Shown: positions 483-14,074, numbered from the stretch's first letter. The stretch is 14,074 nucleotides of DNA from a virus (IMGVR_UViG_2778261358_000016:1-14074), one strand, 5' to 3'. Notes: generated from the letters alone by a model not told the origin. Made by a program: numbers and translations.

Positions 483-543
483 GTGTATTGACACGTTAAT
501 TACACCTCATATAATGTATTTATGTGTAATGACACATTACACA
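483..543 (+). promoter_or_regulatory. Two operator-like sites sharing GTGTAWTGACACRTTA (483..498 and 524..539); second lies in a perfect 8-bp inverted repeat TGTGTAAT-N5-ATTACACA (523..543)
   Basis: Direct repeat of a 16-bp motif spaced 41 bp apart, one copy overlapping the -35 and one just downstream of the -10; dyad symmetry typical of dimeric repressor binding. Confidence 0.4.
488..515 (+). promoter_or_regulatory. Sigma70-type promoter with consensus -35 TTGACA (488..493) and -10 TATAAT (510..515), 16-bp spacer, driving the rightward small-gene operon
   Basis: Exact hexamer matches read directly from sequence; located about 110 bp upstream of the first rightward gene with a strong RBS. 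Confidence 0.5.
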
Positions 544-623
544 CAATCAACACAAAAAGCAAAGCCCCGCACTGTAGGAGCAGTAACGGGGCTTCTAACC
601 AACAACGTAAACTAGGAGCCGTT

Positions 624-821
624 ATGGTTGCCGTAAATCATATACCACACCTTGTACACACACAAACGGCCTTTGTGTGGCGTTTTCTGGCACTGAGTGC
701 CGGAGAATCTCAAATAATCCACGTAACCGCCTGGACGGAACGCGAAGCGCGTAACCGTTGCCCGTCAGGTTGTGTTGCTGTATTCGCCGCCCGTATTCGC
801 CAGGGGTCACATCATGCGTAA
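624..821 (+). CDS. Hypothetical small protein A (65 aa), paralog of the C-terminal part of the next gene
   Basis: AGGAG RBS 5 nt upstream of ATG; conserved blocks FVWRF and TEREAR...ARIRQG shared with ORF 814..1275, differing mainly at synonymous third positions. Confidence 0.55.
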   Translation: MVAVNHIPHLVHTQTAFVWRFLALSAGESQIIHVTAWTEREARNRCPSGCVAVFAARIRQGSHHA

Positions 822-1275
822 AAACCGCTTGCAAAAAATTATCACGGGGCTGTATGCTTCCCCCGTCGCCCACATGGCGACCGGGTTTAGCAGCCTGAAT
901 ACATCTGGCGGACAGCCGCCCACATCCGATAAGCGGTTTTTTTGTGTCCGTAAACCTACCCATACCCGCATTATGGCGGGGCGTAACGGGGGAGCCTTTG
1001 TGCTCGCTGGTTTCCAGATGACCAGTCTGCTAACCCTGTTACGTCTCGCCACCATGTTTAGCAGCGTAGTAGCGAGACTCCTTAAAATTCATCTGGGAGC
1101 CTTTCACATGGCTGTATCCGCACGCCCTTATTTTGTCTGGCGCTTTATGCAGTGCCTGACAGACAGCATTGCAATATTCACCGTTACCGCAGCCACTGAA
1201 CGCGAAGCACGCGCCCAGCTGCCGCACGCACATCTGATTTTTGTCGCCCGTATTCGTCAGGGGGTAGGCTTATGA
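814..1275 (+). CDS. Hypothetical protein B (153 aa) carrying a C-terminal copy of the protein A domain
   Basis: ATG at 814 overlaps the stop of gene A (ATGCGTAA); AGGGG RBS; C-terminal 60 aa align with protein A (FVWRF, VTAxTEREAR, ARIRQG). Confidence 0.5.
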   Translation: MRKNRLQKIITGLYASPVAHMATGFSSLNTSGGQPPTSDKRFFCVRKPTHTRIMAGRNGGAFVLAGFQMTSLLTLLRLATMFSSVVARLLKIHLGAFHMAVSARPYFVWRFMQCLTDSIAIFTVTAATEREARAQLPHAHLIFVARIRQGVGL

Positions 1276-1502
1276 GTCAGGAAATCACACTACAACAGGC
1301 AGCAGAACGCGCCCACCAAATCGAAGTTATTTGCGCACTGGCAGAGGATTACCCTGGCATGATGACCGACAGCGAATCAGGGGCAATCATCGGCTTACTT
1401 AAACGCCTTAGCGGTGAGGTCTGCGTATTCCTGAGCGATGAACAGGAAAGAAGAACGCTTATTTCTAACGAAAAAAAATGCGGAGGGGTACATGTGCAAT
1501 AA
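1272..1502 (+). CDS. Hypothetical small protein C (76 aa)
   Basis: ATG overlaps stop of gene B (TTATGA); G-rich RBS upstream; no recognisable motif. Confidence 0.45.
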   Translation: MSQEITLQQAAERAHQIEVICALAEDYPGMMTDSESGAIIGLLKRLSGEVCVFLSDEQERRTLISNEKKCGGVHVQ

Positions 1503-1722
1503 AACCACACCGGACGCAGCAGAAGAAGCAATGCAAATACTGATACGTGCGCTCGTTGATGTTACCCACATGGTGGAGATTATGGAGAGAAAATCACAGT
1601 CGGAGCACGACAAAAGAAAACTTAAAACAATAAAAATAATTGCCAAAAACTCGCTGATAAAAGTTACAGACATCCTTAATGAGGACATTAAAAGAATAAG
1701 GGAGAAAATTTGTGATGCATAA
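1492..1722 (+). CDS. Hypothetical small protein D (76 aa) in low-GC cassette
   Basis: GGAGGGG RBS 3-4 nt upstream of ATG at 1492; overlaps end of gene C; region about 37 percent GC by eye versus over 50 percent in flanks; Lys/Glu-rich, likely helical. Confidence 0.45.
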   Translation: MCNKTTPDAAEEAMQILIRALVDVTHMVEIMERKSQSEHDKRKLKTIKIIAKNSLIKVTDILNEDIKRIREKICDA

Positions 1723-1942
1723 AATCCCTTTTGAAGTATTAATCCACTCTGAAAACGCATTAATTAAAGCACGCGAAATGAATGCGTTGTTAATTAAATT
1801 AATTGAAGTGCCGGAAGGTGGTGAAGAATCAGGTGTATTAATGTTTGCAGCCATTCAGACATTACTATCGCCGGTTATTGATGAACTGGATAAGGCAATG
1901 GCAATTCACGAGAATAATAACTCGCCCCATACCGGAGAATAA
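1712..1942 (+). CDS. Hypothetical small protein E (76 aa) in low-GC cassette
   Basis: GTG/ATG start at 1712/1715 preceded by AAGGGAG; overlaps stop of gene D; same low-GC patch. Confidence 0.45.
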   Translation: MMHKIPFEVLIHSENALIKAREMNALLIKLIEVPEGGEESGVLMFAAIQTLLSPVIDELDKAMAIHENNNSPHTGE

Positions 1943-1947
1943 AAATA

Positions 1948-2247
1948 ATGAAACTTAAATATTCTGGCTTAACTGCCAGTGGCAAAACTCGCACTAAATT
2001 CATGCGCGGTGATATTTACCGCGACCAGTACGGCGGCACGGTAATGATTAAGGGCGTGGAGGAACGGCGCGTAACCTACCGTCGTGAAGGCTACGAATAT
2101 GATTGCGTGATGCCTGTTTATCAGTTCGACCGTGATTTTTCTCTGGTGCAGGCTGTACCGCGTAACGTTCCAACCAGCAGGGAGAAAGCACGCGCCAATA
2201 TTCAGGAAATAAGAAAGATGTTGAATGTATTCAGGGGTAAAAAATGA
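1948..2247 (+). CDS. Hypothetical small protein F (99 aa), translationally coupled to the replication helicase
   Basis: Stop TGA overlaps rep ATG (ATGA at 2244..2247); GGAG upstream; no recognisable motif. Confidence 0.5.
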   Translation: MKLKYSGLTASGKTRTKFMRGDIYRDQYGGTVMIKGVEERRVTYRREGYEYDCVMPVYQFDRDFSLVQAVPRNVPTSREKARANIQEIRKMLNVFRGKK

Positions 2248-3650
2248 AACTGGCACCGAACGTAAAACTGTTACCGAAAGATAAACACACTGAGGCGGTT
2301 ATTTTTGCGGGTGATAATGCTCACTCCTTTGCAGAACATTACATGATTGCACAGGCCAAAAAAGCAGGCGATCCCATCCCTCCGGTTTACCTGGGCCGTT
2401 ATCAGTTAAGCGAACTGGACAATTTACAGATTGTTGATGAAGGACGATACAGAGCAAAGGTCATACGCGCCGGAAACCTGGACGATATGCAGATGCTGAC
2501 CATTGCCACCAAACTGGCGATCGCAGGTGTCCGGGAAGCGCGGTTACTTTCAGAGAATTTCGAACTACTGGAGGACTGGAGCGAGCAACTACCGCGACTT
2601 AAAGAAACCTGGGAACGCGGGGAAAGTCTGGTCATGAATGGCGTAAAGCGAAAAATCACACTTCCCATCTCATGGGGTTCTGAGGGATTCGACGCGCAGC
2701 AAAGCTACGTAATTAAGGGGCTTATTCCGGCTGAATCATTATGCAGCACCTACGGGGCCAGCGGTTCTTATAAATTGTTCCTGGCTATTTCCTGGTCGTG
2801 CCATGTTGCCACAGGTATGGCATGGGGAGGCCGCAGGGTAAGTAAGGGCGCGGTTATCTATATCGCTGGCGAAGGCAGTATGGGCGTAAAACGCCGCGTT
2901 AAGGCGTGGGAGATAACCCACGACAAGGTGGTTACGGATTTGTGCATCGTTAACGCGCCTGTCTTCCCTGCATCGCCTGACTATGTGGAGCAGGTTATCA
3001 GGACTGCCGGACTTGTTAAGAGCAGAACGGGCGAAAATGTGCGGCTGATTGTGATCGACACGCTGGCCCGTTGCTTTGGTGGGAATGATGAAAATGATTC
3101 CCGTGATATGGGCGCATTTATCCAGGGGTGTGACGCGATAAAGCAGGCCACAGGGGCCACGGTACTGGTGGTTCACCATTCCGGCAAGGATGAAACAAAG
3201 GGGGCGCGAGGTTCCAGCGCATTCCGCGCTGCACTGGATGCAGAGTACCGAATCAGCCGGGAAAATTCAGACGTTACAGCACTGGTGGCGGCGTGTACGA
3301 AGATGAAAGACGCAGAGGAGCCAAAAGAGAGCGCATACGACCTTAAAAGCGTGGAGGTGTTTACCGATACCGATGGCGAAGAGATTGTGTCCATGGTGGT
3401 GATTGACGTTCCCCGCGCCCCTGCTGAACTGGAGCGCATAGAGGAGGCCGGGAACAAGACGGAAAATCACACGGCTTTATGGGGTTGTATCCGGTCACGT
3501 ATACAGCATGGTGATAAATGCACGATCCCGCTGCTACGTGATGACATGAAAAAGCTGGGATATGACACAAAACACCTTAAACGATGGTTAGCCAAACTGG
3601 AAAAAGACGGCGTGATTTGCGTCGATGGGGATGATGTTCACCCACTGTAA
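2244..3650 (+). CDS. Replication protein, RepA-like RecA-fold helicase (AAA_25 family) with N-terminal and C-terminal extra domains
   Basis: Motifs resembling RSF1010 RepA-type helicases: GASGSYKLFLAISW (P-loop region, deviant), VIYIAGEGS, VIDTLARCF (Walker B-like), VLVVHHSGKDETKGARGSSAF (HH..K and RGSS motifs); iteron array immediately downstream. Confidence 0.7.
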   Translation: MKLAPNVKLLPKDKHTEAVIFAGDNAHSFAEHYMIAQAKKAGDPIPPVYLGRYQLSELDNLQIVDEGRYRAKVIRAGNLDDMQMLTIATKLAIAGVREARLLSENFELLEDWSEQLPRLKETWERGESLVMNGVKRKITLPISWGSEGFDAQQSYVIKGLIPAESLCSTYGASGSYKLFLAISWSCHVATGMAWGGRRVSKGAVIYIAGEGSMGVKRRVKAWEITHDKVVTDLCIVNAPVFPASPDYVEQVIRTAGLVKSRTGENVRLIVIDTLARCFGGNDENDSRDMGAFIQGCDAIKQATGATVLVVHHSGKDETKGARGSSAFRAALDAEYRISRENSDVTALVAACTKMKDAEEPKESAYDLKSVEVFTDTDGEEIVSMVVIDVPRAPAELERIEEAGNKTENHTALWGCIRSRIQHGDKCTIPLLRDDMKKLGYDTKHLKRWLAKLEKDGVICVDGDDVHPL

Positions 3651-3714
3651 AAAGTGGGCGTTAAAAGTGGGCGTTAAAAGTGGGCGTTAAAAGTGGGCGT
3701 TAAAAGTGGGAATA
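3650..3714 (+). repeat. Iteron array: four perfect tandem copies of 13-bp AAAAGTGGGCGTT plus one degenerate copy; further GTGGG-core copies in both orientations to about 3895; candidate origin of replication
   Basis: Perfect 13-bp direct repeats start at the rep stop codon; inverted copy CGCCCACTTT at 3744..3753; additional AAGTGGGC/AGGTGGGC copies at 3774..3890. Confidence 0.7.
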
Positions 3715-3891
3715 GTGGGTAATTTAACTGGAATTTAACAAAATCGCCCACTTTCCCACGTGTATACATCCCAAAAAGTGGGCACTAAAAAAATACTTAT
3801 GAAACAGTACGATATAAAACCACAAAATCCCAGGTGGGACGAAGTGGGAAACCATGAAAAGTTGGTAGAAAAAGTGGGCACAGGTGGGCGC

Positions 3892-4143
3892 ATGACCAGA
3901 AAAACCAGAGATAAGACAGCACCAAAATATCGCGCATTAGACATGACAGAGCACGCCTTAAAGGTGGCAATCAGAACGATAGACCGACACGTAGGGGAAG
4001 GATACGCGAAGGAACATCCCGACCTGATAAGCGCATTCATGACCACAGCAGCGGCAAACTTTGCCACGCTGACAGAACGGGAGATCGCAGAAGCAGAACA
4101 GGTAACAACCATCAACGTTAAAACCGGAGAGGTGGAATCATGA
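3892..4143 (+). CDS. Hypothetical protein (83 aa; start uncertain, ORF is open from 3760)
   Basis: AGGTGG RBS before ATG at 3892; upstream part of the open frame is occupied by iteron copies; stop overlaps the SSB start. Confidence 0.4.
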   Translation: MTRKTRDKTAPKYRALDMTEHALKVAIRTIDRHVGEGYAKEHPDLISAFMTTAAANFATLTEREIAEAEQVTTINVKTGEVES

Positions 4144-4550
4144 CAGCACAGATAGCGGCTTACGGGCGGCTGGTGGACGACCCGCAGGTAAAACAGACCA
4201 GTAAGGGCACACCGATGACGCTGGCGCGTATGGCGGTATCGTTGCCATGTAGTCAGGCGCAGGATGGGCAGGCGACGTTATGGCTATCGGTCATCGCATT
4301 TGGTAAGCAGGCCGACTTCCTGGCTAAACATCAAAAAGGCGACGTTGCCAGCGTATCCGGCACGATGCAGGTCAGCCAGTGGACCGGACAGAACGGGGAA
4401 ACGCGGCAGGGTTATCAGGTTATTGCAGACAGCGTAATCAGTGCCCGTGCGGCACGTCCTGGCGGGAACAGACGCAAAACCACAGGCACACAGGGTAATC
4501 AGCCACCAGCGGGAGGCGATGACCCTTACGGTGACGGTATTCCGTTCTGA
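4140..4550 (+). CDS. Single-stranded DNA-binding protein (SSB) homolog
   Basis: OB-fold core resembling E. coli SSB (WLSVIAFGKQADFLAKHQKGDVASVSGTMQVSQWTGQNGETRQGYQVIADSV), Gly/Gln-rich linker and acidic C-terminal tip DDPYGDGIPF (compare DDDIPF); strong GGAGAGGTGG RBS. Confidence 0.75.
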   Translation: MTAQIAAYGRLVDDPQVKQTSKGTPMTLARMAVSLPCSQAQDGQATLWLSVIAFGKQADFLAKHQKGDVASVSGTMQVSQWTGQNGETRQGYQVIADSVISARAARPGGNRRKTTGTQGNQPPAGGDDPYGDGIPF

Positions 4551-4560
4551 GGGGGTGGCG

Positions 4561-4833
4561 ATGGTACATGACCGCATAGCGGAAGAACTCGAGGCGAAAG
4601 GCTTTTACCGGAGGGCGTCGGCGCGATGGGGTGAAGTCATGCTGCTGGTGGAGACAGACAAGGAACGGCATCAGGTTACGATGCGACGGCTGGAATGTTC
4701 CAGGAAGGCACAGAAGCCACCGGAGCCGCCGGATAACTTCGGAGACCTGAGAAAGGCAGTAGATCGCACTTATGCTGAAATGGGTATAGATGGTGTAAGC
4801 GATGAAATATGGCGAAATTACCAGGACAGATAA
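4561..4833 (+). CDS. Hypothetical protein (91 aa)
   Basis: GAGGGGGTGG RBS before ATG at 4561; followed by an intrinsic terminator; ORF-track start at 4441 would overlap SSB and is less likely. Confidence 0.45.
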   Translation: MVHDRIAEELEAKGFYRRASARWGEVMLLVETDKERHQVTMRRLECSRKAQKPPEPPDNFGDLRKAVDRTYAEMGIDGVSDEIWRNYQDR

Positions 4834-4839
4834 TCACAC

Positions 4840-4862
4840 AGCCGGAGCAATCCGGCTTTTTG
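4840..4862 (+). terminator. Rho-independent terminator closing the replication operon
   Basis: AGCCGGA-GCAA-TCCGGCT hairpin followed by TTTTTGTCATGTTTT. Confidence 0.6.
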
Positions 4863-4981
4863 TCATGTTTTGTAAATTATTTGTTCGTGGTTGTTCCACG
4901 TTGCTCGCTGACCGGAACGGCATATTTTACCCGACCTGAATCATGATTATTCTCGCCCGTGGTGCCAGGACGCTGGGGCCA

Positions 4982-5031
4982 TTTTCCCGCCTGTTAATGT
5001 GCTCGCCAATATTCATTACCAGGCGGGAAAA
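4982..5031 (+). repeat. Perfect 12-bp inverted repeat TTTTCCCGCCTG-N26-CAGGCGGGAAAA in the leader of the capsid operon
   Basis: Arms are exact reverse complements; about 90 bp upstream of the capsid start; not followed by a T-run on either strand. Confidence 0.5.
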
Positions 5032-5120
5032 CGATCGGTGCGATTACTGATTTCCTTATGAAAAACGGTTGAGTGTTTGCCGCGTCCTGGAGTTCCTTAC
5101 TTAACCCCAGGACTTTTTTT

Positions 5121-6278
5121 ATGCCGAGAATAATCGAATTACGCCAGCAGAAAACCGCCATTAAAAATCAGATGCGCGACATGCTGGAGAACGCGGAAAA
5201 AGAAAACCGCAGTCTTAACGATGCTGAGGGCGCAAAATTTGACGAATTACGCGCTAAAGCTGAATCCCTCGATAAAGACATTTCCCGCCTTGAAGCCATT
5301 GCAGACGAAGAGCGCAGCAAGCCAGGTAAAAGCAGCCAGACCACTGACCCCGCAGAACTACGCAACTACATTCTGACAGGTGAAACCCGCGCATTAAGTA
5401 CAGGCGTTCCCGCTGATGGTGGTTATACCGTTATCCCCGAACTGAACACCGAAATCATGCGAATGCTGACGGATGAATCCACCATGCGCCGCATCTGTAC
5501 CGTGAAGAAAATCAGCAGCAACGAGTTTAAGCAGCTTGTTTCCGCTGGCGGTGCGACCGTTAACCACGGTGAAGAGGGTAAGACACGCGAACAGACCAGC
5601 ACCCCGCAGATTAACGAGGTGAGCATTAAGCTGTATCCGGTCTATGCGTACCCGCGCACCACATAGGAAATCGTGGATTTTTCCGATGTGGACATCCTTT
5701 CATGGCTGACGGGTGAGATTGGCGACACCTTCACGGAAACCGAAGAAAGCGATCTGGTTGTGGGCGACGGTGACAAAAAAGCAAAAGGTTTTTTATCCGT
5801 ACCCCGTGCAGAGAAGAACGACAAAGAGCGTGATTTTGGTACGTTGCAGGTAATTAAACCTTCCGAATCTCTGGCGTGGACATCTGCGGACCCGCTGATC
5901 GACCTGAAATTTGCATTACGTAAAAAATACCGCAAAAACGCGGTCTGGGTGGTTAACTCCACGACGGCGGCAAAACTTCAGAAGGTGAAGAACGCGAACG
6001 GTGATTACATCTGGCGCGACCGTTTACAGGCGGGTGATCCTGATACGTTGCTGGGCCTTCCGGTCGAATATCTGGAGTTTATGCCTGATAACGTTATTGC
6101 CCTGGGTGACTTCAAACGCGGTTACTACATTGTTGATCACGAAACAGGTGTTCGCACCAGACCGGACAACCTCACAGAGCCGGGCTTCATCAAAATTTTC
6201 ACGCAGAAATATTTAGGCGGTGGCGTGGTGGATTCGAACGCGATCAAGATTCTGGAACTGCCACAGGACGACGATTAA
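5121..6278 (+). pseudogene. HK97-family major capsid protein interrupted by a single in-frame amber codon (TAG 5664..5666); pseudogene or suppression-dependent
   Basis: ORFs 5073..5666 and 5673..6278 are in the same frame, separated only by TAG; conserved capsid region continues across the stop (YPRTT*EIVDFSDVDILSWL...GDGDKKAKGFL); N-terminal coiled-coil delta-like domain; AGGA RBS before ATG 5121. Confidence 0.7.
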
Positions 6279-6288
6279 CAGCATACAG

Positions 6289-6319
6289 AAGGGGCTTAAA
6301 AGCCCCTTTAGTGTTTTAT
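6289..6319 (+). terminator. Intrinsic terminator/attenuator directly after the major capsid gene
   Basis: AGGGGCTT-AAA-AGCCCCT hairpin followed by TTAGTGTTTT; overlaps the protease start region. Confidence 0.5.
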
Positions 6320-6890
6320 GGGTGAAAAAATTATGAAGAGTATGGAAATCCGGTCATCGGAAATCACTACCAGCGGAGCCGGTACGCTGACGGGCTACGT
6401 TGTTCGCTGGGATAAGCTTTCAGAACTGCTATGGGGGGAGTTTTACGAAAAATTCCAGCGGGGGGCGTTTACTGAGTGGCTTGCGGCGGGTAATGACGTT
6501 CGCGGCCTGTATGAGCATGACCACAGCATGTTACTGGGGCGCACCCGTTCCGGCACGCTGAAACTGGAAGAGGACGAAACAGGGTTACGCTTTGAACTGA
6601 CCCCACCGGATACCAGTACAGGGCGCGACGTTATCGAACTGGTTAAACGAGGTGATATATCCGGCATGAGCTTTGGCTTTCGTTCCCGTAAGGATGTATG
6701 GGATACCACAACAGATCCATGCGTGCGCACCGTGCTGGTGGCGGAACTATACGAAATTACCGTTACATCCGTACCGGCTTACCCTGATTCCGGCGTGGAG
6801 CTGGCCCGCCGCTCCCTGTACGAGCAGCACCCCGAAAAAATGCCGCGTGCGGATAATCGCCGCTGGTGGGCGGATTTAGCGGGGGTGTGA
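6318..6890 (+). CDS. Prohead maturation protease, HK97 family (start may be 6333 or 6342)
   Basis: Position next to capsid and portal; motifs LYEHDHSMLLGRT and GDISGMSFGF consistent with HK97-type prohead proteases. Confidence 0.75.
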   Translation: MGEKIMKSMEIRSSEITTSGAGTLTGYVVRWDKLSELLWGEFYEKFQRGAFTEWLAAGNDVRGLYEHDHSMLLGRTRSGTLKLEEDETGLRFELTPPDTSTGRDVIELVKRGDISGMSFGFRSRKDVWDTTTDPCVRTVLVAELYEITVTSVPAYPDSGVELARRSLYEQHPEKMPRADNRRWWADLAGV

Positions 6891-6891
6891 T

Positions 6892-8103
6892 ATGTGGCCT
6901 TTCAGAAGAAAAAAAGAGCAGCGCAGCATGACGCTTGATGAGTTTATGGCGCTGGCTGGCACATCGAACACGGGGGCGGGTGAGTACGTATCATCGGGGA
7001 CAGCGGAATCACTGCCCGCCGTCATGAACGCCGTCACGGTCATCTCTGAGGCGGTGGCTACCATGCCGTGTTACCTGTACCTGGTACGCAATGAGAAGGG
7101 GAAGGAGGCCCGAGAGTGGCTTGATTCTCATCCGGTCGATCACATCCTCAACGAGCGCCCGAACGCATGGCAAACCCCCTACCAGTTTAAGCGAATGATG
7201 ATTCGCCACTGCCTGTTAAACGGTAATGCTTATGCGGTGATTCAGTGGGGGCGTGATGGTTTTCCAGTCGCTTTGCATCCTTACCCGCCGCAGTCGGTGA
7301 ACGTTGAGCAGACAGGTGAGCATAACTGGCGCTACTGCATCACTGACGCCTACACCGGAAACACCCGCAACTATTTACCGTGGGAGGTTCTCCACCTTCG
7401 TTACTCCACGGATGACGGTTTTATGGGGCGCTCACCTGTAACCATCTGCCGCGAATCGCTGGGGCTTGGGCTGGCCCAACAACGCCACGGCGCGAGCGTG
7501 ATGCGTGATGGCATGATGGCGGCAGGGGTTATCACGTCAGGCGAATGGCTGGACGGCGTGAAGGGCAAACAGGCATTAGCCGCACTGGAACGCTACAAAG
7601 GGGCCAGAAACGCCGGAAAAACGCCCATCCTTGAAGGGGGTATGAGCTATCAGCAGCTGGGCATGAGTAATCAGGATGCTGAATGGCTGGCCTCCCGTCG
7701 CTTCACCATTGAAGACATCGCCCGAATGTTCAACGTCTCGCCGATTTTTTTGCAGGAATACAGCAACAGCACCTACAGCAATTTCAGCGAGGCAAGCCGC
7801 GCATTTCTCACCATGACGATGCGCCCGTGGCTGGCGAACTTTGAGCAGCAGATAAAAAACGCCCTGCTGGTGGCCTCACCTGTACCTGGTATCCGGTATC
7901 AGGTGGAGTTTGACAGCGCGGACCTGTTACGGGCCACTCCTGGCGAACGCTTTGCCACCTATGAACGCGGCATCAAATCCGGCGTTATGTGCCCGAACGA
8001 AGCCCGCGAACGTGAAGGGCTGTCCCCGCGTGATGGTGGTGATGAGTTCAGCCAGGCATGGAAACAGGAAGTAAAAATCAGCGAGGGAGAAAAACCGGAA
8101 TGA
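6892..8103 (+). CDS. Portal protein, HK97 family
   Basis: 403-aa protein with portal-like conserved blocks (NAYAVIQ, EDIARMFNVSPIFL); start overlaps protease stop. Confidence 0.8.
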   Translation: MWPFRRKKEQRSMTLDEFMALAGTSNTGAGEYVSSGTAESLPAVMNAVTVISEAVATMPCYLYLVRNEKGKEAREWLDSHPVDHILNERPNAWQTPYQFKRMMIRHCLLNGNAYAVIQWGRDGFPVALHPYPPQSVNVEQTGEHNWRYCITDAYTGNTRNYLPWEVLHLRYSTDDGFMGRSPVTICRESLGLGLAQQRHGASVMRDGMMAAGVITSGEWLDGVKGKQALAALERYKGARNAGKTPILEGGMSYQQLGMSNQDAEWLASRRFTIEDIARMFNVSPIFLQEYSNSTYSNFSEASRAFLTMTMRPWLANFEQQIKNALLVASPVPGIRYQVEFDSADLLRATPGERFATYERGIKSGVMCPNEAREREGLSPRDGGDEFSQAWKQEVKISEGEKPE

Positions 8104-8438
8104 ACATAGGGCGACTGCGTGACAGGGTAACGATTCAGACCCTGAAACAGACCAGGGATATAACCGGCGAAATACTCGAAACGTGGGTGGACGGTCACAC
8201 ACTCTGGGCAAGCGTGAACATGATCAGCAGCAAGGAGGCCATTTCATCGGGTGCAGAACTGGCGACTGGAACGGTAAGGATATGGATACGCTACAGGAAG
8301 GACATCAACGCCACCAGCCGGATAAAGGTCAATACGGGGCCGCTGGCGGGGCGTGTACTGAATATCATCGGGCAGCCGCTGCCGGATGCCGCCAGGACAC
8401 GCCTTGAAATTCTTTGTCGTGAGGGCGCGGAAAAATGA
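8100..8438 (+). CDS. Head-tail joining / head closure protein (Phage_H_T_join-like)
   Basis: About 112 aa; N-terminal GRLRDRVTIQ...TWVDGHTLWASV pattern typical of the family; ATGA overlap with portal stop; GAGGGAG RBS. Confidence 0.6.
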   Translation: MNIGRLRDRVTIQTLKQTRDITGEILETWVDGHTLWASVNMISSKEAISSGAELATGTVRIWIRYRKDINATSRIKVNTGPLAGRVLNIIGQPLPDAARTRLEILCREGAEK

Positions 8439-8731
8439 CAGAAGAACTTATCACCCTGGAAGAAGTGAAACTCCATTGCCGCATCGATGGCGACGAGGAA
8501 GACCAGTTAATCAGCGGATACATCGCCGCATCGCTTGAGGCGTGCCAGATACACATAGGCAGGCGCTTTGATGACGGGCTGGAGTTCACGCCAGCCATAA
8601 AGATTGGCTGCATGATGTTTATCGCTCACCTGTATGAAAATCGCCAGATTGTCGCGGATAACGCAAAAACACGCGTACCCATGACGATTGGTGCACTCTG
8701 GACGGCTTACCGTGATGTGGGGGTGTACTGA
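8435..8731 (+). CDS. gp6-like head-tail connector protein
   Basis: N-terminal ITLEEVKLHCRIDGDEEDQLISGYIAAS matches the characteristic LxxAKxHLRID..D.LI motif of gp6-like connectors. Confidence 0.65.
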   Translation: MTEELITLEEVKLHCRIDGDEEDQLISGYIAASLEACQIHIGRRFDDGLEFTPAIKIGCMMFIAHLYENRQIVADNAKTRVPMTIGALWTAYRDVGVY

Positions 8732-9171
8732 TGCCGTGGCAACCATTAAGACGATGCACAGAACCAGGCTGTAACAGGCGCGTGAAGTCCGGCAAGTGTG
8801 AGGAGCACAGGCGGGCGGCATGGCGTGCAGAGGATGCCAGACGAGGACACCGCCGCGCGCGTGGGTACTCCAGACAGTGGGACAAATACCGCGCCATGTA
8901 TCTGAGTAAAAACCCGTTATGCGTGCGATGCCTTGAGAAGGGGATATATACGCCCGCCGTGGTGGTGGATCACATTATCCCGATTAATGGCGGTGATGAT
9001 GTTCTCTTCTGGCCCGAATGGAACCATCAGCCATTGTGCCAGGCGTGCCATAACCAGAAAACGAAATGGCTTGATCCGGCAACAAAAAGCAAGCGTGCCG
9101 CAGGTGGATTTCGTGAAGAGGAAGAACGGGCCGCTAACCGCAATAACTGGATGTATGACGCTGATGAATGA
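8731..9171 (+). CDS. HNH endonuclease associated with the terminase (HK97 gp74-like role)
   Basis: Cys-rich zinc-binding N-terminus and HNH motif VVVDHIIPINGGDD...NHQPLCQACHNQKT; sits immediately upstream of terS/terL. Confidence 0.8.
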   Translation: MPWQPLRRCTEPGCNRRVKSGKCEEHRRAAWRAEDARRGHRRARGYSRQWDKYRAMYLSKNPLCVRCLEKGIYTPAVVVDHIIPINGGDDVLFWPEWNHQPLCQACHNQKTKWLDPATKSKRAAGGFREEEERAANRNNWMYDADE

Positions 9172-9337
9172 GCGGGAACAAAACCGCCTTATCCGTGGAC
9201 TTATAAGGCAGCGTGACGCATGGAAGACACAGGAAACAGGGCATAAAGATAAAGCGTCAGGACGCGCAGAACGCATCACAGCGAAGCGATTAACCGACCG
9301 TGACTGCGAGGTTATGGAATGTTTCCGCAATCGCTGA
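9164..9337 (+). CDS. Hypothetical small basic protein (57 aa)
   Basis: ATG overlaps HNH stop (ATGAATGA); no clear RBS; Arg/Lys-rich; could be non-coding. Confidence 0.3.
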   Translation: MNEREQNRLIRGLIRQRDAWKTQETGHKDKASGRAERITAKRLTDRDCEVMECFRNR

Positions 9338-9460
9338 TGAGGCTGTATGACGGGGTGGGGGGCGTTTTCAGGACAAACCCGACCCCGCCGGGCACCGAAC
9401 GCCTCCTCAAATTTTTATGCACGGGAATTTTTTGAAAAATAATCTGGCGAAAAAATAAGC
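9338..9460 (+). other. Putative cos region between HNH and terS
   Basis: G-rich imperfect dyad GGGGTGGGG-N17-CCCGACCCC at about 9352..9386; position matches the HNH-cos-terS-terL arrangement known from HK97-like cos phages. Confidence 0.3.
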
Positions 9461-9817
9461 ATGGCAAGACCACCGAAAGCCCCCGCCTACCTGGATGATA
9501 TCGCCGTGAAGCAGTGGCGGGAAAAATCGCGGCAGCTTGCGGAACGGGGAGACCTTACCCCCGCCGACTGGAGTAATCTGGAACTGTATTGTGTCAACTA
9601 CTCCATTTACCGGAAAGCCGTTGCAGACCTTGCGGCGCGCGGGTTCAGCATTGTTAACAGTCAGGGCGGCGAGAGCAGAAACCCCGCATTAAGCGCAAAA
9701 TCCGACGCTGAAAGAGTGATGATAAAAATGGCCTCCTTGCTCGGTTTTGACCCGATAAGCCGCCGTAAAAATCCACCGGAAACAGAAGAAGAGGACGAGC
9801 TTGACCGCCTGGAATAA
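9461..9817 (+). CDS. Terminase small subunit (P27-family-like)
   Basis: About 118 aa starting MARPPKAP, acidic C-terminus, immediately upstream of and overlapping terL. Confidence 0.65.
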   Translation: MARPPKAPAYLDDIAVKQWREKSRQLAERGDLTPADWSNLELYCVNYSIYRKAVADLAARGFSIVNSQGGESRNPALSAKSDAERVMIKMASLLGFDPISRRKNPPETEEEDELDRLE

Positions 9818-11462
9818 GTACGCAGAAGACGTAAAAACGGGCAAAATTCCGGCCTGTAAACGGCTGAAACAGGCCGTTAAACGGTACTTTTCGGACCTTG
9901 AAAGCCCCCTTTACACGTTCGATCGTGAGGTTGTGGAGCGGTTTATTGCCTTTTCCAGGGTGTGCCCGCACGTAAAAGGCGCAATGCGCGGTAGCCCCAT
10001 TGAGCTGGAGCCGTGGCAGCAGTTCGCCTTTGCGTGCATCCTCGGCTTTAAGGTTAAGGCCACCGGACGGCGCAAATACACGAGCGCCTTTATCGAAGTG
10101 CCGCGCAAAAATGCGAAATCCACGACCGCCGCGATTCTGGCTAACTGGTTTTTGATTATGGAGAACGGTCAGCAGGATATCTACACCGCAGCGGTGAGCC
10201 GTGACCAGGCGCGGATCGTCTTTGATGATGCGCGTCAGATGTGCCTTTTATCCCGACCGTTACGCAGGCGGGTGAATATTCAGGCGCATAAGGTGATACA
10301 CCCGAAAAGCAACAGCCTGTTAAAGCCGCTGGCAGCAAAAGCGGCAACCATTGAAGGTACAAACCCGAGTCTTGCCATTGTGGATGAATATCACCTGCAC
10401 CCTGACAACGGGGTTTATTCCGCGCTTGAACTGGGAATGGGGGCGCGTCCGGAGGGGCTGTTATTTGCCATCACCACATCGGGGAGCAACGTTGTTTCAG
10501 CCTGTAAACAACACTACGACTATTGCTGCCAGATACTGGATGGTGAAGAGGTGAACGAATCCATGTTCGTGCTGATTTACGAGCTGGATGATGAAAGCGA
10601 GGTTGACGATCCGGCGATGTGGATAAAGGCGAATCCCAATATCGATGTTTCCGTCGATCGTGAAAAACTGGCCTCAACCATCCAGAAAGCGCGGGGAATA
10701 CCGTCGCAGTGGGTGGAGATGATGACAAAGCGATTTAATATCTGGTGCCAGGGGGCTACCCCGTGGATGGGTAACGGCGCATGGGCTGAGTGTGCCGGAA
10801 CGTTCACGGAGGAAGATTTACACGGCCAGGAGTGTTACGCGGGGCTGGATTTATCATCAACCAGCGATATTTCCAGCGTATGCTATGCCTTTCCGGTCGG
10901 TAAAACCATTATGCTGATTTCCCGTCATTATCTGCCGGAGTTCCAGCTACAGAACCCCGCCAATAAAAACCGCGCTGTCTATCGTCAGTGGGCTAAAGCG
11001 GGCTGGATACGCACAACGCCTGGCGACTGCATTGATTACGACCGGATCAGAGATGACATCATGCAGGACGCGGAGAAATTTCATATCAGGCTGGTGGGCT
11101 TTGATACGTGGAACGCCACGCATCTCAGAACGCAATTACAGGGGGCAGGTTTTGAGGTGGAGCCGTTCCCGCAAACCTACCTCAGATTCAGTCCGGCGGC
11201 GAAATCGTTCGAAGTTTTTGTTAACCGCAGGGTGATTGTGCATCGTGGCGATCCGGTGTTGTCCTGGTCGATGAGTAACGTCGTGATGCAGAGTGACGCG
11301 AACGCCAATATCAAGCCGAACAAGAAAAAATCACCGAACAAGATAGACCCGAGCGTGGCGGCACTGATGGCGTTTGGTACATTCCAGGCAGAGCATGAGG
11401 ATTTTGCTTTTGATATAAGCGACAGCCACCGCCAGAAACTGGAAGAATTCAGCGGGGTGTAA
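9801..11462 (+). CDS. Terminase large subunit (TTG start)
   Basis: 553 aa; ATPase Walker A-like VPRKNAKST and Walker B LAIVDEYHL; nuclease-domain motif GLDLSSTSD; GAGGA RBS 5 nt before TTG at 9801, which overlaps the terS 3-prime end by 17 nt. Confidence 0.85.
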   Translation: MTAWNKYAEDVKTGKIPACKRLKQAVKRYFSDLESPLYTFDREVVERFIAFSRVCPHVKGAMRGSPIELEPWQQFAFACILGFKVKATGRRKYTSAFIEVPRKNAKSTTAAILANWFLIMENGQQDIYTAAVSRDQARIVFDDARQMCLLSRPLRRRVNIQAHKVIHPKSNSLLKPLAAKAATIEGTNPSLAIVDEYHLHPDNGVYSALELGMGARPEGLLFAITTSGSNVVSACKQHYDYCCQILDGEEVNESMFVLIYELDDESEVDDPAMWIKANPNIDVSVDREKLASTIQKARGIPSQWVEMMTKRFNIWCQGATPWMGNGAWAECAGTFTEEDLHGQECYAGLDLSSTSDISSVCYAFPVGKTIMLISRHYLPEFQLQNPANKNRAVYRQWAKAGWIRTTPGDCIDYDRIRDDIMQDAEKFHIRLVGFDTWNATHLRTQLQGAGFEVEPFPQTYLRFSPAAKSFEVFVNRRVIVHRGDPVLSWSMSNVVMQSDANANIKPNKKKSPNKIDPSVAALMAFGTFQAEHEDFAFDISDSHRQKLEEFSGV

Positions 11463-11475
11463 TGAGGTCAGCAGC

Positions 11476-11757
11476 ATGACAGAAGCCGAACTACTGGGAT
11501 TAATCCGCCGCGTATCTGGAATCAGCCAGCAGGCTGACGAACAGACCACGCAGCCGGACAGCGTGACAGCCGAAAATTATGCGCGTGTTGTTGCTGAGGT
11601 GATGTGCCGTGATGGTATCCAGCTTAATGATGTTGATATGCGCAACATACGGATCCGCGTTCTTGAAATGCTGGCCTACAATCGCCGCGTTGAACTGCAT
11701 CGGGAGAAAGAAAAAATAACGTACCACTGGAAGAAGCCGGAGCGGTTGCGGCGGTAA
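11476..11757 (+). CDS. Hypothetical protein (93 aa) downstream of terL
   Basis: ORF following terL; its stop codon lies inside the first copy of the downstream repeat box. Confidence 0.45.
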   Translation: MTEAELLGLIRRVSGISQQADEQTTQPDSVTAENYARVVAEVMCRDGIQLNDVDMRNIRIRVLEMLAYNRRVELHREKEKITYHWKKPERLRR

Positions 11758-12173
11758 CTGGTTGATATTTTCGAAATTCGCCAGCGGCGAACATCGGGGA
11801 AACCAGCCTAACCCGTTGATTCTTTCGGAAACAGCCATTGGCGGAATCCGGCGCGGTAACTTGCTGATATTCCCGATAACGCAAAATTGCGTGGCTGAAT
11901 GAACATTATGATTACTTATGATTACGCAGATGATTAAGGCCTAAACCGTTGATTCTTCCCAATTTCCACAGACTGTGGAAGTTGGCGCGGTAACTTACTG
12001 AGATTAAAGCAAAGCGCAAAATTGCGCCGACTACATCCCTCACATGCGAAATTTTCGCAGTTTAATTACTCGCCAGTTTGATCGTTAACCCGCTGATATT
12101 TTCGGGAACCTCAATTTGAGGAAGTCGGCGCGGTAACTGGTTGATACTTTCGACCTCCTCAATTTGAGGAGGT
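11748..12173 (+). repeat. Array of diverged about 133-bp tandem units, each with a Y box (TAAMCCGYTGATWYTTYC) and an X box (GGCGCGGTAACTNNNTGANAT) followed by palindromes of unit-specific sequence
   Basis: X boxes at 11748, 11848, 11982, 12125; Y boxes at 11809, 11942, 12084; palindromes TTCGCC-N3-GGCGAA, CGCAAAATTGCG (twice), TTCCACAGACTGTGGAA, CCTCAATTTGAGG (twice, once extended to 11-bp arms). Confidence 0.7.
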
Positions 12174-12613
12174 CGGGGCACAGAAAAACAACGAATATGT
12201 TGTTTTTGGGAATGGTCATAATGACCACGCAGACCATCAAGGCAACCACAACGAACATCGTTACGGTTGGAGCTTTTACCCCACTGGGGGAAAGGTATTA
12301 CGATAATCATAACACCTACCGAACAGGTAAAACCCACCAGCCTGATTAACAGTTAACCGGAAAAAAAATCCGGTAGCCCCGTTATGGGGATCCCCATATC
12401 GACATTAACGCCCCTCATGAATTGGTGCGCTTCCCCCTGGAAAGATTACCCGCCTGTATATTTCTTGTGTCTATTTGTTCCACGTTGTTTCATACAGTGC
12501 ACCGAACGGTGTAGTTAATGGTGTAGTCAATTTGCTGTTTTTAGCACTTTTTGCAGTGTGGGTTGTTTAATTAAATCAATTGGTTGCCTTGCTGTGGTGA
12601 TAAAAGGACATAT

Positions 12614-14074
12614 TTATTCATCTTTCGGCGCAGAATGCTGGCGACCAAAAATCACCTCCATCCGCGCACCGCCCAGCATGCTCTCTCCGGCGACGATTTT
12701 ACCCTCATATTGCTCGGTGATTTCGCGGGCTACCGCCAGCCCTACACCTTGCCCAGGGCGTAAAGTATCAACCCGTTGACCACGGTCGAAAATGACCTCT
12801 CGCTTGCTTAATGGAATACCGGGGCCATCATCCTCGACCACAATATAGAGATGCTCGTCGGTTTGCCTTGCAGAAATTTCGACAAACTCGAGGCAATATT
12901 TACAGGCATTATCCAGCACGTTGCCCATCACCTCGACAAAATCGTTCTGCTCACCGACAAAGCTGATCTCTGGCGAAATATCGAGAGAGATATTGACCCC
13001 TTTGCGTTGATACACTTTGTTCAGCGCTGAGGTGAGATTGTCCAGCAGTGGGGCGACCGGATGCAGCTCGCGGCTGAGCAATGTCCCGCCGCGCATACTG
13101 GCACGATGCAGGTAGTAGCCAATTTGCTGTGAAATGCGGCTGATTTGCTCCAGCATTACCGGCTCAGCATCACTGACGCTCATCTTTTCACTACGCAGAG
13201 AACGCAGCGTACTTTGCAGCACCGCCAGTGGCGTTTTCAGACTATGGGTCAGGTCGGTGAGCGTCGTACGGTATTTGTCGTAACGTTCGCGTTCACTTTT
13301 TAACAATCGGTTCAGGTTTCGTACCAGACTGGTCAGTTCTCGCGTTGTGGCTGGATTGAGCAATTCGCGGTTATGTTCTTCCAGTTCGCGGACTTCTTTT
13401 GCCAGGGCTTCGATGGGGCGTAAACTCCACCAGGCGGCGACCCACAGCAGCGGGATCACTAACAGCAGATTGGCTGAGAGCACATAGATAAACCAGCTCC
13501 AGACCATATAGGAACTTTTTAGCTCCACCGGAATGGTATCCACCACCACAATGGTTAATTTTGGCATCCGCGATGTTGCCGGGTAGACGTTTACTGCCAC
13601 CGAGTGGGTCATCTCCGCGTCGTCATCATCTTCCCGCACTTCCTGCAACTGTTGCTGTATCGAATGATCTCCACTCAGCAAGAGGCTGGTATCGTTAACA
13701 TCCGCTTCAATTTCATGAAAACCATTCGATTTCAGCCAGTCAGGCTGGATCATCTTCATCAGCCAGGGCACGTCACGTTGCGCCCATAAAAGCTGCCCGT
13801 TCTCATCATAAATTAGCGTCATGGTGGGGCTTTGCTTGTCGATATTTTCGGGTAACTCGACATGCAACTTATTGTTTTCCCACTTCGCAAGGGTATAGAA
13901 CAGATTGCTCTCGCCACGTAACAGCCGAAACGTAGTTTTATCGAAACTGACGCTATAACCGATCAGCGCGACCATTCCGTAGGCAAGCGAAAGCACCAGT
14001 ACTACCGCAGCCGTTGCCAACAGAAAACGTACCCGCAGTGAGAGCGGGAAAAAAAGACGCAGTAATTTTTTCAT
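12614..14074 (-). CDS. phoQ: Sensor histidine kinase PhoQ (complete, 486 aa)
   Basis: Translation shows two transmembrane segments, an acidic periplasmic patch (EDDDDAE), the H-box ([12 protein letters not shown]) and ATP-binding G-boxes; C-terminus [11 protein letters not shown] as in enterobacterial PhoQ. Confidence 0.95.

Follow-up and report, generated by a model that had tools for sequence, protein, structure and literature searches.

Two small overlapping genes, here called D and E, occupy positions 1492–1942 of IMGVR_UViG_2778261358_000016:1-14074, a 14,074-nt stretch of DNA (the window) that consists of Escherichia coli chromosome carrying a satellite island. The island is a capsid-forming phage-inducible chromosomal island (cf-PICI), a satellite inserted between roxA and phoQ. 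We found that D and E are local alleles (D1 and E1) of two satellite-specific hairpin families located at fixed positions of the early operon, and that they are new, uncharacterised small early-operon genes of the sort known from P4-type and PICI satellites. A preliminary description of this DNA had presented them as a candidate accessory cargo cassette; their membership of the operon and their non-cargo status are now well supported. The most likely role of D and E is that of small protein-binding early modulators of the satellite life cycle, with E as the constant component and D as an optional partner. We hold this reading with moderate confidence, and we infer a target and a mechanism for it below.

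The evidence against import came from the slot between the last cell-division-inhibitor-like (Icd-like) gene of the operon and gene F, which follows E and encodes a DUF4222 protein orthologous to RgdR. A survey anchored on F covered 91 loci, 72 of them distinct; ten annotated E. coli islands were joined by 80 further loci fetched from IMG/VR. F-anchored retrieval from one genome per species gave only 2 loci, and the survey accordingly draws on contigs of IMG/VR and on genomes of E. coli. In the ten annotated islands, the last Icd-like gene and F were separated by between one and four small genes in tight overlap, the last of which stopped 5 nt before the F start codon in every case. All-against-all comparison assigned the slot genes to few families, only about eight small ones in the 72 distinct islands (C, C2, D1–4, X, G, G2, H and E1–3), and their order C, (G2), D, (X), E, F was invariable. 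An E-family gene ending 5 nt before F was present in 70 of the 72 distinct islands (E1 in 23, E2 in 43 and E3 in 4), a D-family gene in 53/72 (D1 in 11, D2 in 8, D3 in 9 and D4 in 25), and gene C, an optional slot member, in 15/72. The replacement of the pair by other gene sets, which the preliminary description had proposed to look for in homologous islands, was not observed, no unrelated set occupying the slot among these 72 islands. That description had also considered that D and E might prove to be conserved core genes of known function; the conserved position was found and the known function was not. The islands that carry the D and E families at this position are PICIs and cf-PICIs of Escherichia.

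At the allele level, the slot is modular, D being present or absent and allele classes with an identity of only about 35% being swapped between islands. Profile comparison by hhalign showed that E1 is homologous to E2/E3 (probability 95.9%, E = 6e-9) and D1 to D2–D4 (probability 98.6%, E = 6e-16). The D family is conserved in its N-terminal helix (M.NKTTPDAA...L..AL.D) across D1–D4, and its second helix is variable and is replaced between classes. D1 occurred solely with E1 (11/11), D2 and D3 solely with E2, and D4 in 24 E2 islands and one E1 island, and the replicase type (primase, RepA or DUF927) and the F alleles recombine freely with every E class. The observation that D never occurred without an E-family gene was uninformative, because E is nearly universal. 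Conserved sequences at the gene boundaries may act as recombination junctions that shuffle the slot genes. More distant E-like proteins (P0112 and P0117) were found in early operons of AlpA islands, upstream of the replicase. One of these, P0112, begins with a D-type N-terminus, MFSNNTPD, and some islands carry D fused to the next gene X, with a product of about 154 aa. A paralogous origin of C, D and E was rejected, as BLASTP and hhalign found no relationship among them; D and E are mutually unrelated.

The low GC content of the pair did not indicate recent import either. The patch of about 37% GC described earlier in an island above 50% was borne out by calculation, positions 1492–1942 having 37.9% GC (D 37.7%, E 38.1%) compared to 52.2% for the island (600–11900) and 51.2% for the whole window, so that a uniform GC content is excluded. 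All 451-bp segments of the window averaged 51.5% GC (standard deviation (sd) 4.4); the D/E segment lies about 3 sd below this mean (rank 178/13,624), and the lowest segment of all (35.9% GC) begins at 1521, within the D/E stretch. The GC content at third codon positions (GC3) was 0.40 for D and 0.34 for E vs 0.55–0.65 in neighbouring genes, which indicated that amino-acid composition alone was not enough to account for the dip. Across the 72 islands, the region from −200 to 0 relative to the F start had 38–39% GC (sd 2%), and the genes of E1, E2 and E3 all had 38–40% GC although their proteins are only ~25–35% identical, with GC3 values of 0.34 (E1) and 0.36 (E2) vs 0.54–0.56 for F and the replicase. 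The D1 allele is AT-rich as well (39% GC), and D2–D4 have 47–51% GC. The dip is thus common to all islands and E classes and is no mark of recent import; the low GC is a lasting feature of the position of E and of allele D1, old rather than recently imported. For genome scans, the lesson is that a local GC dip within a mobile element need not signal imported cargo.

Both reading frames are real genes under purifying selection, as judged by their ratios of nonsynonymous to synonymous substitution rates (dN/dS), which were ~0.19 for E1 alleles (112 pairs, median dS 0.67) and ~0.41 for D1 alleles, the latter from only 4 informative pairs. The two overlapping genes of ~76 aa noted earlier were thereby confirmed, D with 76 aa and E with 75 or 76 aa, each having a Shine–Dalgarno sequence and the stop codon of D (1720–1722) overlapping the start of E. 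The further expectation that both proteins are probably helical agreed with AlphaFold2 models, in which each was predicted to form a two-helix hairpin (D, helices 9–34 and 38–75, pLDDT 87.2; E, helices 6–30 and 36–68, pLDDT 82.8). E is acidic (pI 4.9, net charge −7), D is mildly basic (pI 8.6) and F is strongly basic (+10.5). The absence of a recognisable motif was also upheld: D and E had no match in Pfam (E <= 1) or NCBIfam, and C, D, E and F gave 0 families at E <= 1 against the PADLOC defence models. Weak full-length matches were obtained to two functionally uncharacterised PHROG families with profiles of ~74 aa (D to phrog_5146, E = 4.5e-8; E to phrog_2196, E = 2e-8). A tblastn search of D and E in 50,697 deposited phage genomes found no homologue, suggesting that the members of these PHROG families are probably satellite- or prophage-derived, and an exhaustive search with the E alignment profile recovered only 13 representatives in 1.84 billion proteins, all of them small and unannotated.

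The chain formed by the Icd-like gene, C, D, E, the RgdR-like F and RepA is translationally coupled and lies downstream of a promoter and a C4 RNA (Table 1). Its members are joined by ATGA stop–start overlaps at the Icd2/C and F/RepA junctions, by an 11-nt overlap at C/D and by an overlap at D/E; at E/F, a gap of 5 nt separates the E stop from the F start, and the last codons of E contain the ribosome-binding site of F (GGAG, 1934–1937). The −35 and −10 elements at 488–515 likely represent the start of the early rightward operon, as suggested by their location upstream of an Icd-like gene and by analogy with P4. By the same analogy, this is probably a constitutive early promoter feeding the C4 RNA; a constitutive P4 promoter and P4-type regulation have been described, and matches to C4 and isrK have been reported in Gram-negative PICIs (PMC10111431). 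The motif TTTAGCAGC is present at 886 and again at 1057, the second copy lying between the C4 RNA and the start of Icd-like gene 2, and seven of its bases, TTAGCAG, are complementary to CUGCUAA (1027–1033) in an unpaired part of C4. The promoter abuts the start of a leftward YlcI/Arc-like gene (315–494). In the near-identical genome described below, RefSeq calls a 153-aa 'Icd-like' coding sequence (CDS) corresponding to 814–1275, which spans the C4 RNA and the target motifs; the real Icd-like open reading frame (ORF) is probably only that at 1108–1275, and the longer CDS looks like an over-call across an RNA gene.

Table 1 Features of the early region and replication module of the island, in window coordinates
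Feature	Position	Strand	Remarks
Sigma-70 promoter	488–515	+	TTGACA-16-TATAAT, 12/12 consensus
Icd-like gene 1	624–821	+	NCBIfam phage_ICD_like E = 5e-18; RefSeq annotation
C4 target-type motif c4-a1b1	852–901	+	45.5 bits vs gathering score 46.7, just below threshold
isrK-like element	865–943	+	36.8 bits vs gathering score 50; below threshold
C4/CI-type antisense immunity RNA	969–1056	+	Rfam RF01695, 72.7 bits (gathering score 45), E = 7e-13, full length
Icd-like gene 2	1108–1275	+	NCBIfam phage_ICD_like E = 1.5e-14; stop overlaps C start (ATGA)
Gene C (76 aa, phrog_1478)	1272–1502	+	
Gene D (76 aa), allele class D1, predicted helical hairpin	1492–1722	+	ATG; GGAGG 5 nt upstream
Gene E (75/76 aa), allele class E1, predicted acidic helical hairpin	1712 (GTG) or 1715 (ATG)–1942	+	RefSeq start 1715
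Gene F, DUF4222, RgdR orthologue with RGD motif	1948–2247	+	Pfam DUF4222 E = 5e-24; overlaps RepA start (ATGA)
RepA-family helicase (AAA_25), island replicase	2244–3650	+	
Replication origin	3647–3879	.	Five tandem 13-nt iterons (GTTAAAAGTGGGC, 3647–3711) and inverted copies around an AT-rich core

A close parallel to this arrangement was the left operon of P4, which consists of Vis/ORF88, eta/kil with the CI RNA, epsilon, ORF151, ORF106 and the alpha primase, joined by 8-nt overlaps. Both elements are satellites of temperate coliphages, and in both a regulator of the AlpA type is followed by an Icd/Eta-like ORF that harbours the C4/CI immunity RNA, by several small, tightly overlapping ORFs and then by a replicase; the Rfam C4 model matches the island RNA as well as the P4 CI RNA. 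The position of E is that of epsilon, since both lie in one operon with the replicase, upstream of it and downstream of the CI/C4 RNA and the Icd/Eta-like ORF. P4 differs in that neither sequence nor profile comparison detected any similarity of D and E to epsilon, ORF151 or ORF106, and in that the island replicase is a RepA-type helicase and the island has its own capsid and terminase genes. The preliminary description had placed D and E at a position where satellites carry accessory genes, which agreed with the place of epsilon in P4 and disagreed with the variable regions reported for cf-PICIs. Those regions flank the packaging module and lie just after alpA; D and E are outside them, with the Icd/C4 region on one side and the replicase on the other, where the 'Bro' zone of PMC10111431 borders on its 'Replication' zone. 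In a comparison of F with P4 ORF151, residues 19–67 of F (DUF4222) aligned to the ORF151 N-terminus (L097 7440–7895) with an hhalign probability of 11% and E = 0.003 ('GDIYRD..G.V.IKGV' vs 'GEIYRS..V.VVGI'), a similarity that Pfam does not confirm. If it were real, RgdR would be the counterpart of ORF151 and E the exact counterpart of epsilon.

A second parallel is the immI operon of phage P1. As in the island, the c4 RNA with repeated targets precedes an icd-like ORF, which is translationally coupled to downstream effector genes. The effector of P1 immI (c4 RNA, icd, ant1/ant2) is a large Ant antirepressor; the island has instead a chain of ~76-aa genes followed by the replicase.

By analogy with P4 and P1, C4 RNA derived from the constitutive transcript would silence the genes downstream of it as long as the island is quiescent. 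Synthesis of D and E would then be confined to entry into a new cell or to helper-triggered activation via AlpA, alongside RgdR and the replicase. The small size and simplicity of both proteins appear to rule out enzymes and sequence-specific DNA binders, and they would most likely bind a helper-phage or host protein, probably acting as dimers that form four-helix bundles, with D as an optional partner matched to the E allele class. The preferred target would be a helper or host regulator, because E sits exactly where P4 has epsilon; this analogy is the weakest step of the proposal.

Several observations weigh against such a role. P4 epsilon matches PF25738 ('Derepression protein family') at 4e-50, and the D and E profiles gave an hhalign probability of <1% against epsilon; the lack of similarity to epsilon or PF25738 makes the epsilon analogy one of position alone. 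No C4 RNA was detected at the gathering threshold in 7/11 related islands tested, including the D1–E1 carriers L002 and L003, and C4 gating is therefore not general in the D/E context. E1 occurred without any D-family gene in 11/23 E1 islands, so a D–E complex is not obligatory, and the linkage of D and E classes may reflect mere adjacency combined with the lack of a recombination junction shared between classes. A modulator role leaves the conserved low GC without explanation. Foldseek searches (the Protein Data Bank (PDB) with both models, BFVD with E) returned only generic helical hairpins, with best E-values of 0.16–1.3, and profile searches of PDB sequences gave nothing below E = 0.2 and thus no PDB relative in sequence. 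The literature searched contained no experiment on members of the D or E families and no demonstrated function for them. The top Foldseek matches of D were two-helix hairpins of the encapsulated-ferritin (EncFtn) type that assemble into bundles, and the predicted fold and size of D and E are like those of four-helix-bundle hairpins such as ColE1 Rop and EncFtn. These E-values (>= 0.16) are not significant and no motifs or metal-binding residues are shared, which makes the resemblance generic and uninformative on function.

The position of E also raised the more specific possibility, which we consider unlikely, that E, with or without D, is a helper derepressor that binds the repressor of a resident helper prophage and induces this prophage, as P4 epsilon does with the P2 C protein, and that the allele classes correspond to helper immunity types. 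In the minimal islands L004 and L005, E comes straight after the Icd-like ORF, with the next small gene (F) and the replicase behind it, like epsilon, and in the window E lies downstream of the C4/CI RNA as in P4; in addition, discrete and highly divergent allele classes are typical of specificity determinants. Apart from the missing similarity to epsilon or PF25738, this possibility is opposed by the existence of only three E classes compared to many lambdoid immunity types, by the distant island L093, which has an AntA-domain gene as well as an E-like gene, and by the induction of Gram-negative PICIs, which is described as proceeding from helper to satellite via AlpA, no satellite-to-helper derepression having been reported. 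A related and rather doubtful proposal is that D1 and E1 form an allele-matched heteromeric four-helix bundle, a satellite specificity module towards the helper that would be released when the C4 switch opens and would act as an epsilon-like antirepressor or interference factor unrelated in sequence to known ones. Were this so, E1/E2/E3 and D1–D4 would represent helper-compatibility types of PICIs and cf-PICIs.

The AT-rich tract might instead function at the DNA level, as a nucleation or silencing site for H-NS or as the region of an internal rgdR promoter, which is compatible with D and E also being functional genes; on balance we regard this as improbable. The stable GC content of 38–40% (sd 2%) across E1–E3 despite ~25–35% protein identity, together with GC3 values of 0.34–0.36, pointed in this direction, and rgdR phenotypes observed in uninduced enterohaemorrhagic E. 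coli (EHEC) mean that some transcription reaches rgdR. The synonymous sites of E1 codons 12–16, 62–65, 67–68 and 73–75 were invariant, despite a median dS of 0.67 among the alleles, the 3′ part of this set corresponding to 1898–1942. This suggests a nucleotide-level constraint at the 3′ end of E, which may reflect the region where translation of rgdR is initiated or a junction for recombination that E1 has in common with E2 (...HTGE being the end of both). No consensus-like internal promoter for rgdR was found within 1492–1947 on the + strand, and the clear purifying selection on the E protein argued against a DNA-level role as well.

The palindromes of the tract gave no support to a DNA-level function. 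AT-rich palindromes had been noted earlier and do exist in excess, short inverted repeats with 6-nt arms numbering 17 compared to 5.3 +/- 3.3 expected under a first-order Markov model; they are, however, not conserved. In divergent E1 alleles, the best palindrome (1754–1765/1777–1788, AACGCATTAATT/AATGAATGCGTT) kept only 7/12 complementary positions with no compensating change, and synonymous variation at this site was the same as in the rest of the E gene. It arises incidentally where the tripeptide Asn-Ala-Leu is repeated (AAC GCA TT / AAT GCG TT). A conserved DNA site at the palindromes was rejected on the grounds of this decay and the lack of synonymous constraint. The AT-rich patch was likewise ruled out as the origin of replication by the presence of an iteron-type origin elsewhere (Table 1).

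Another explanation, also doubtful in our judgement, is that E acts with or against its RgdR-like neighbour F, as a partner or an antagonist, the acidic E (−7) being made in step with the strongly basic, DNA-binding F (+10.5) and buffering or chaperoning it. RgdR is the OI-51 regulator of type III secretion, which binds DNA non-specifically and has been proposed to be a co-factor. This behaviour, the opposite charges and the linkage of E to F in 70/72 islands across a 5-nt gap, with the F ribosome-binding site in the last codons of E, are consistent with a partnership, although the co-occurrence is partly built into a survey anchored on F. F alleles at least 93% identical occurred with all three E classes, which are mutually ~25–35% identical, making an allele-specific E–F complex unlikely; the type III secretion phenotype is complemented by cloned rgdR on its own, and in the case of distant E-like genes, another gene intervenes before DUF4222 or the operon has no recognisable DUF4222. 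If D and E did modulate RgdR, they would bear on the regulation of EHEC virulence.

We consider it quite unlikely that D and E serve in anti-defence or host takeover during the entry phase, being made before C4 RNA accumulates and inhibiting host restriction, defence or another host process in the manner of small proteins made early from lambda PL, T7 class I genes and plasmid leading regions. Their location in an early operon next to cell-division-inhibitor-like Icd genes, their small size, rapid divergence, satellite specificity and discrete allele classes, and the acidity of E would all be expected of such proteins; their lack of homologues in bona fide phage genomes (tblastn, 50,697 genomes) and of a tie to any particular defence system would not.

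Finally, a horizontally imported two-gene cargo in the early region, either a toxin–antitoxin or an anti-phage module, is very improbable, since the features in its favour, namely the lowest GC of the window, two small overlapping genes for a basic D (pI 8.6) and an acidic E (pI 4.9), and the presence or absence of D among islands, with D and E together in only 43/5,426 E. coli genomes at the DNA level, are set against the occurrence of the E and D families at the same position in 70/72 and 53/72 related islands, the GC dip common to all E classes, E without D in 11/23 E1 islands, proteins that are neither enzyme-like nor membrane-toxin-like and cf-PICI hotspots reported elsewhere. Neither of the module types named in the preliminary description was recovered, D and E having no toxin–antitoxin or defence match in Pfam, NCBIfam or PADLOC. 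The pair also lacks the attributes of a type II toxin–antitoxin system, having no recognisable toxin or antitoxin domain and not being inherited as an obligate pair.

The early-modulator reading of D and E bears on a neglected part of these satellites. PICIs and cf-PICIs are abundant in E. coli and move virulence regulators such as RgdR, and while their capsid and packaging genes have been dissected, this does not hold for the small genes that lie between immunity region and replicase. What is new here is that an anonymous patch of 'hypothetical proteins' has become a defined and testable pair of satellite-specific families. If D and E set helper or host compatibility, they would help to explain which satellites work with which phages.

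The same slot exists in known islands. EcCIEDL933 (OI-51/CP-933C of EHEC O157:H7) and the PICI EcCICFT073 resemble the window island in the ycfD/roxA–phoQ site, in architecture and in having an RgdR orthologue right after the slot. In the O157-type island (L009/L034), the position of E is taken by an E3-class gene, preceded by a C2-class gene. EcCIEDL933, in which z1841 is the equivalent of E, differs in having the slot H-C2-E3 and a DUF927 replicase, compared to C-D1-E1 and RepA in the window. Flockhart et al. observed differences among lineages in the sequence directly upstream of rgdR, with nothing further noted, and no study of the slot genes of EcCIEDL933 or EcCICFT073 was found in the literature searched.

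The nature of the island was established from a near-identical copy (99.7%) in strain Z1323HEC0393 (L001), where the whole element is bracketed by roxA and phoQ; in the window, phoQ lies at 12614–14074 on the minus strand. The gene order in L001 is int, alpA, two small leftward genes, two Icd-like genes, C, D, E, F (DUF4222), the RepA-family helicase, a small gene, a gene for single-stranded DNA-binding protein (SSB) and a PerC-like gene, followed by a head and packaging set of capsid, protease, portal, head closure, connector, HNH, TerS and TerL genes (L001 RefSeq features 17121–23461, corresponding to 5121–11461 of the window). The RefSeq annotation of L001 contains no tail or lysis genes between int and phoQ. 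A 21-bp direct repeat (CGGTGTAGTTAATGGTGTAGT), with its right-end copy at 12506–12526 and its left copy between roxA and int in L001, delimits ~14.7 kb, within the ~10–18 kb expected of cf-PICIs with an integrase and alpA at the left end; int and alpA of L001 lie upstream of the window. A related island backbone was present in 1,678/5,426 complete E. coli genomes.

The layout of the replication origin agrees with that of Gram-negative PICI origins (PMC6092414). The origin lies just 3′ of RepA and partly overlaps the start of an ORF called at 3760–4143, for which the RefSeq start is 3892. Two families linked to regulation of LEE (locus of enterocyte effacement) are encoded on the island, the RgdR orthologue (1948–2247, with an intact RGD in FMRGDIY) and a PerC-family protein (4561–4833). 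The type III effector genes nleB and espK are located nearby in the closest genome match, suggesting that the host is probably LEE-positive. At the right end, four copies of a ~48-nt repeat (63–100% identical) were found at 11752–12178, within a stretch of ~750 nt that is free of genes and separates the last gene of the island from the direct repeat. This stretch is island DNA present in 1,384/5,426 E. coli genomes and could represent a remnant of a terminal variable region or a cis site.

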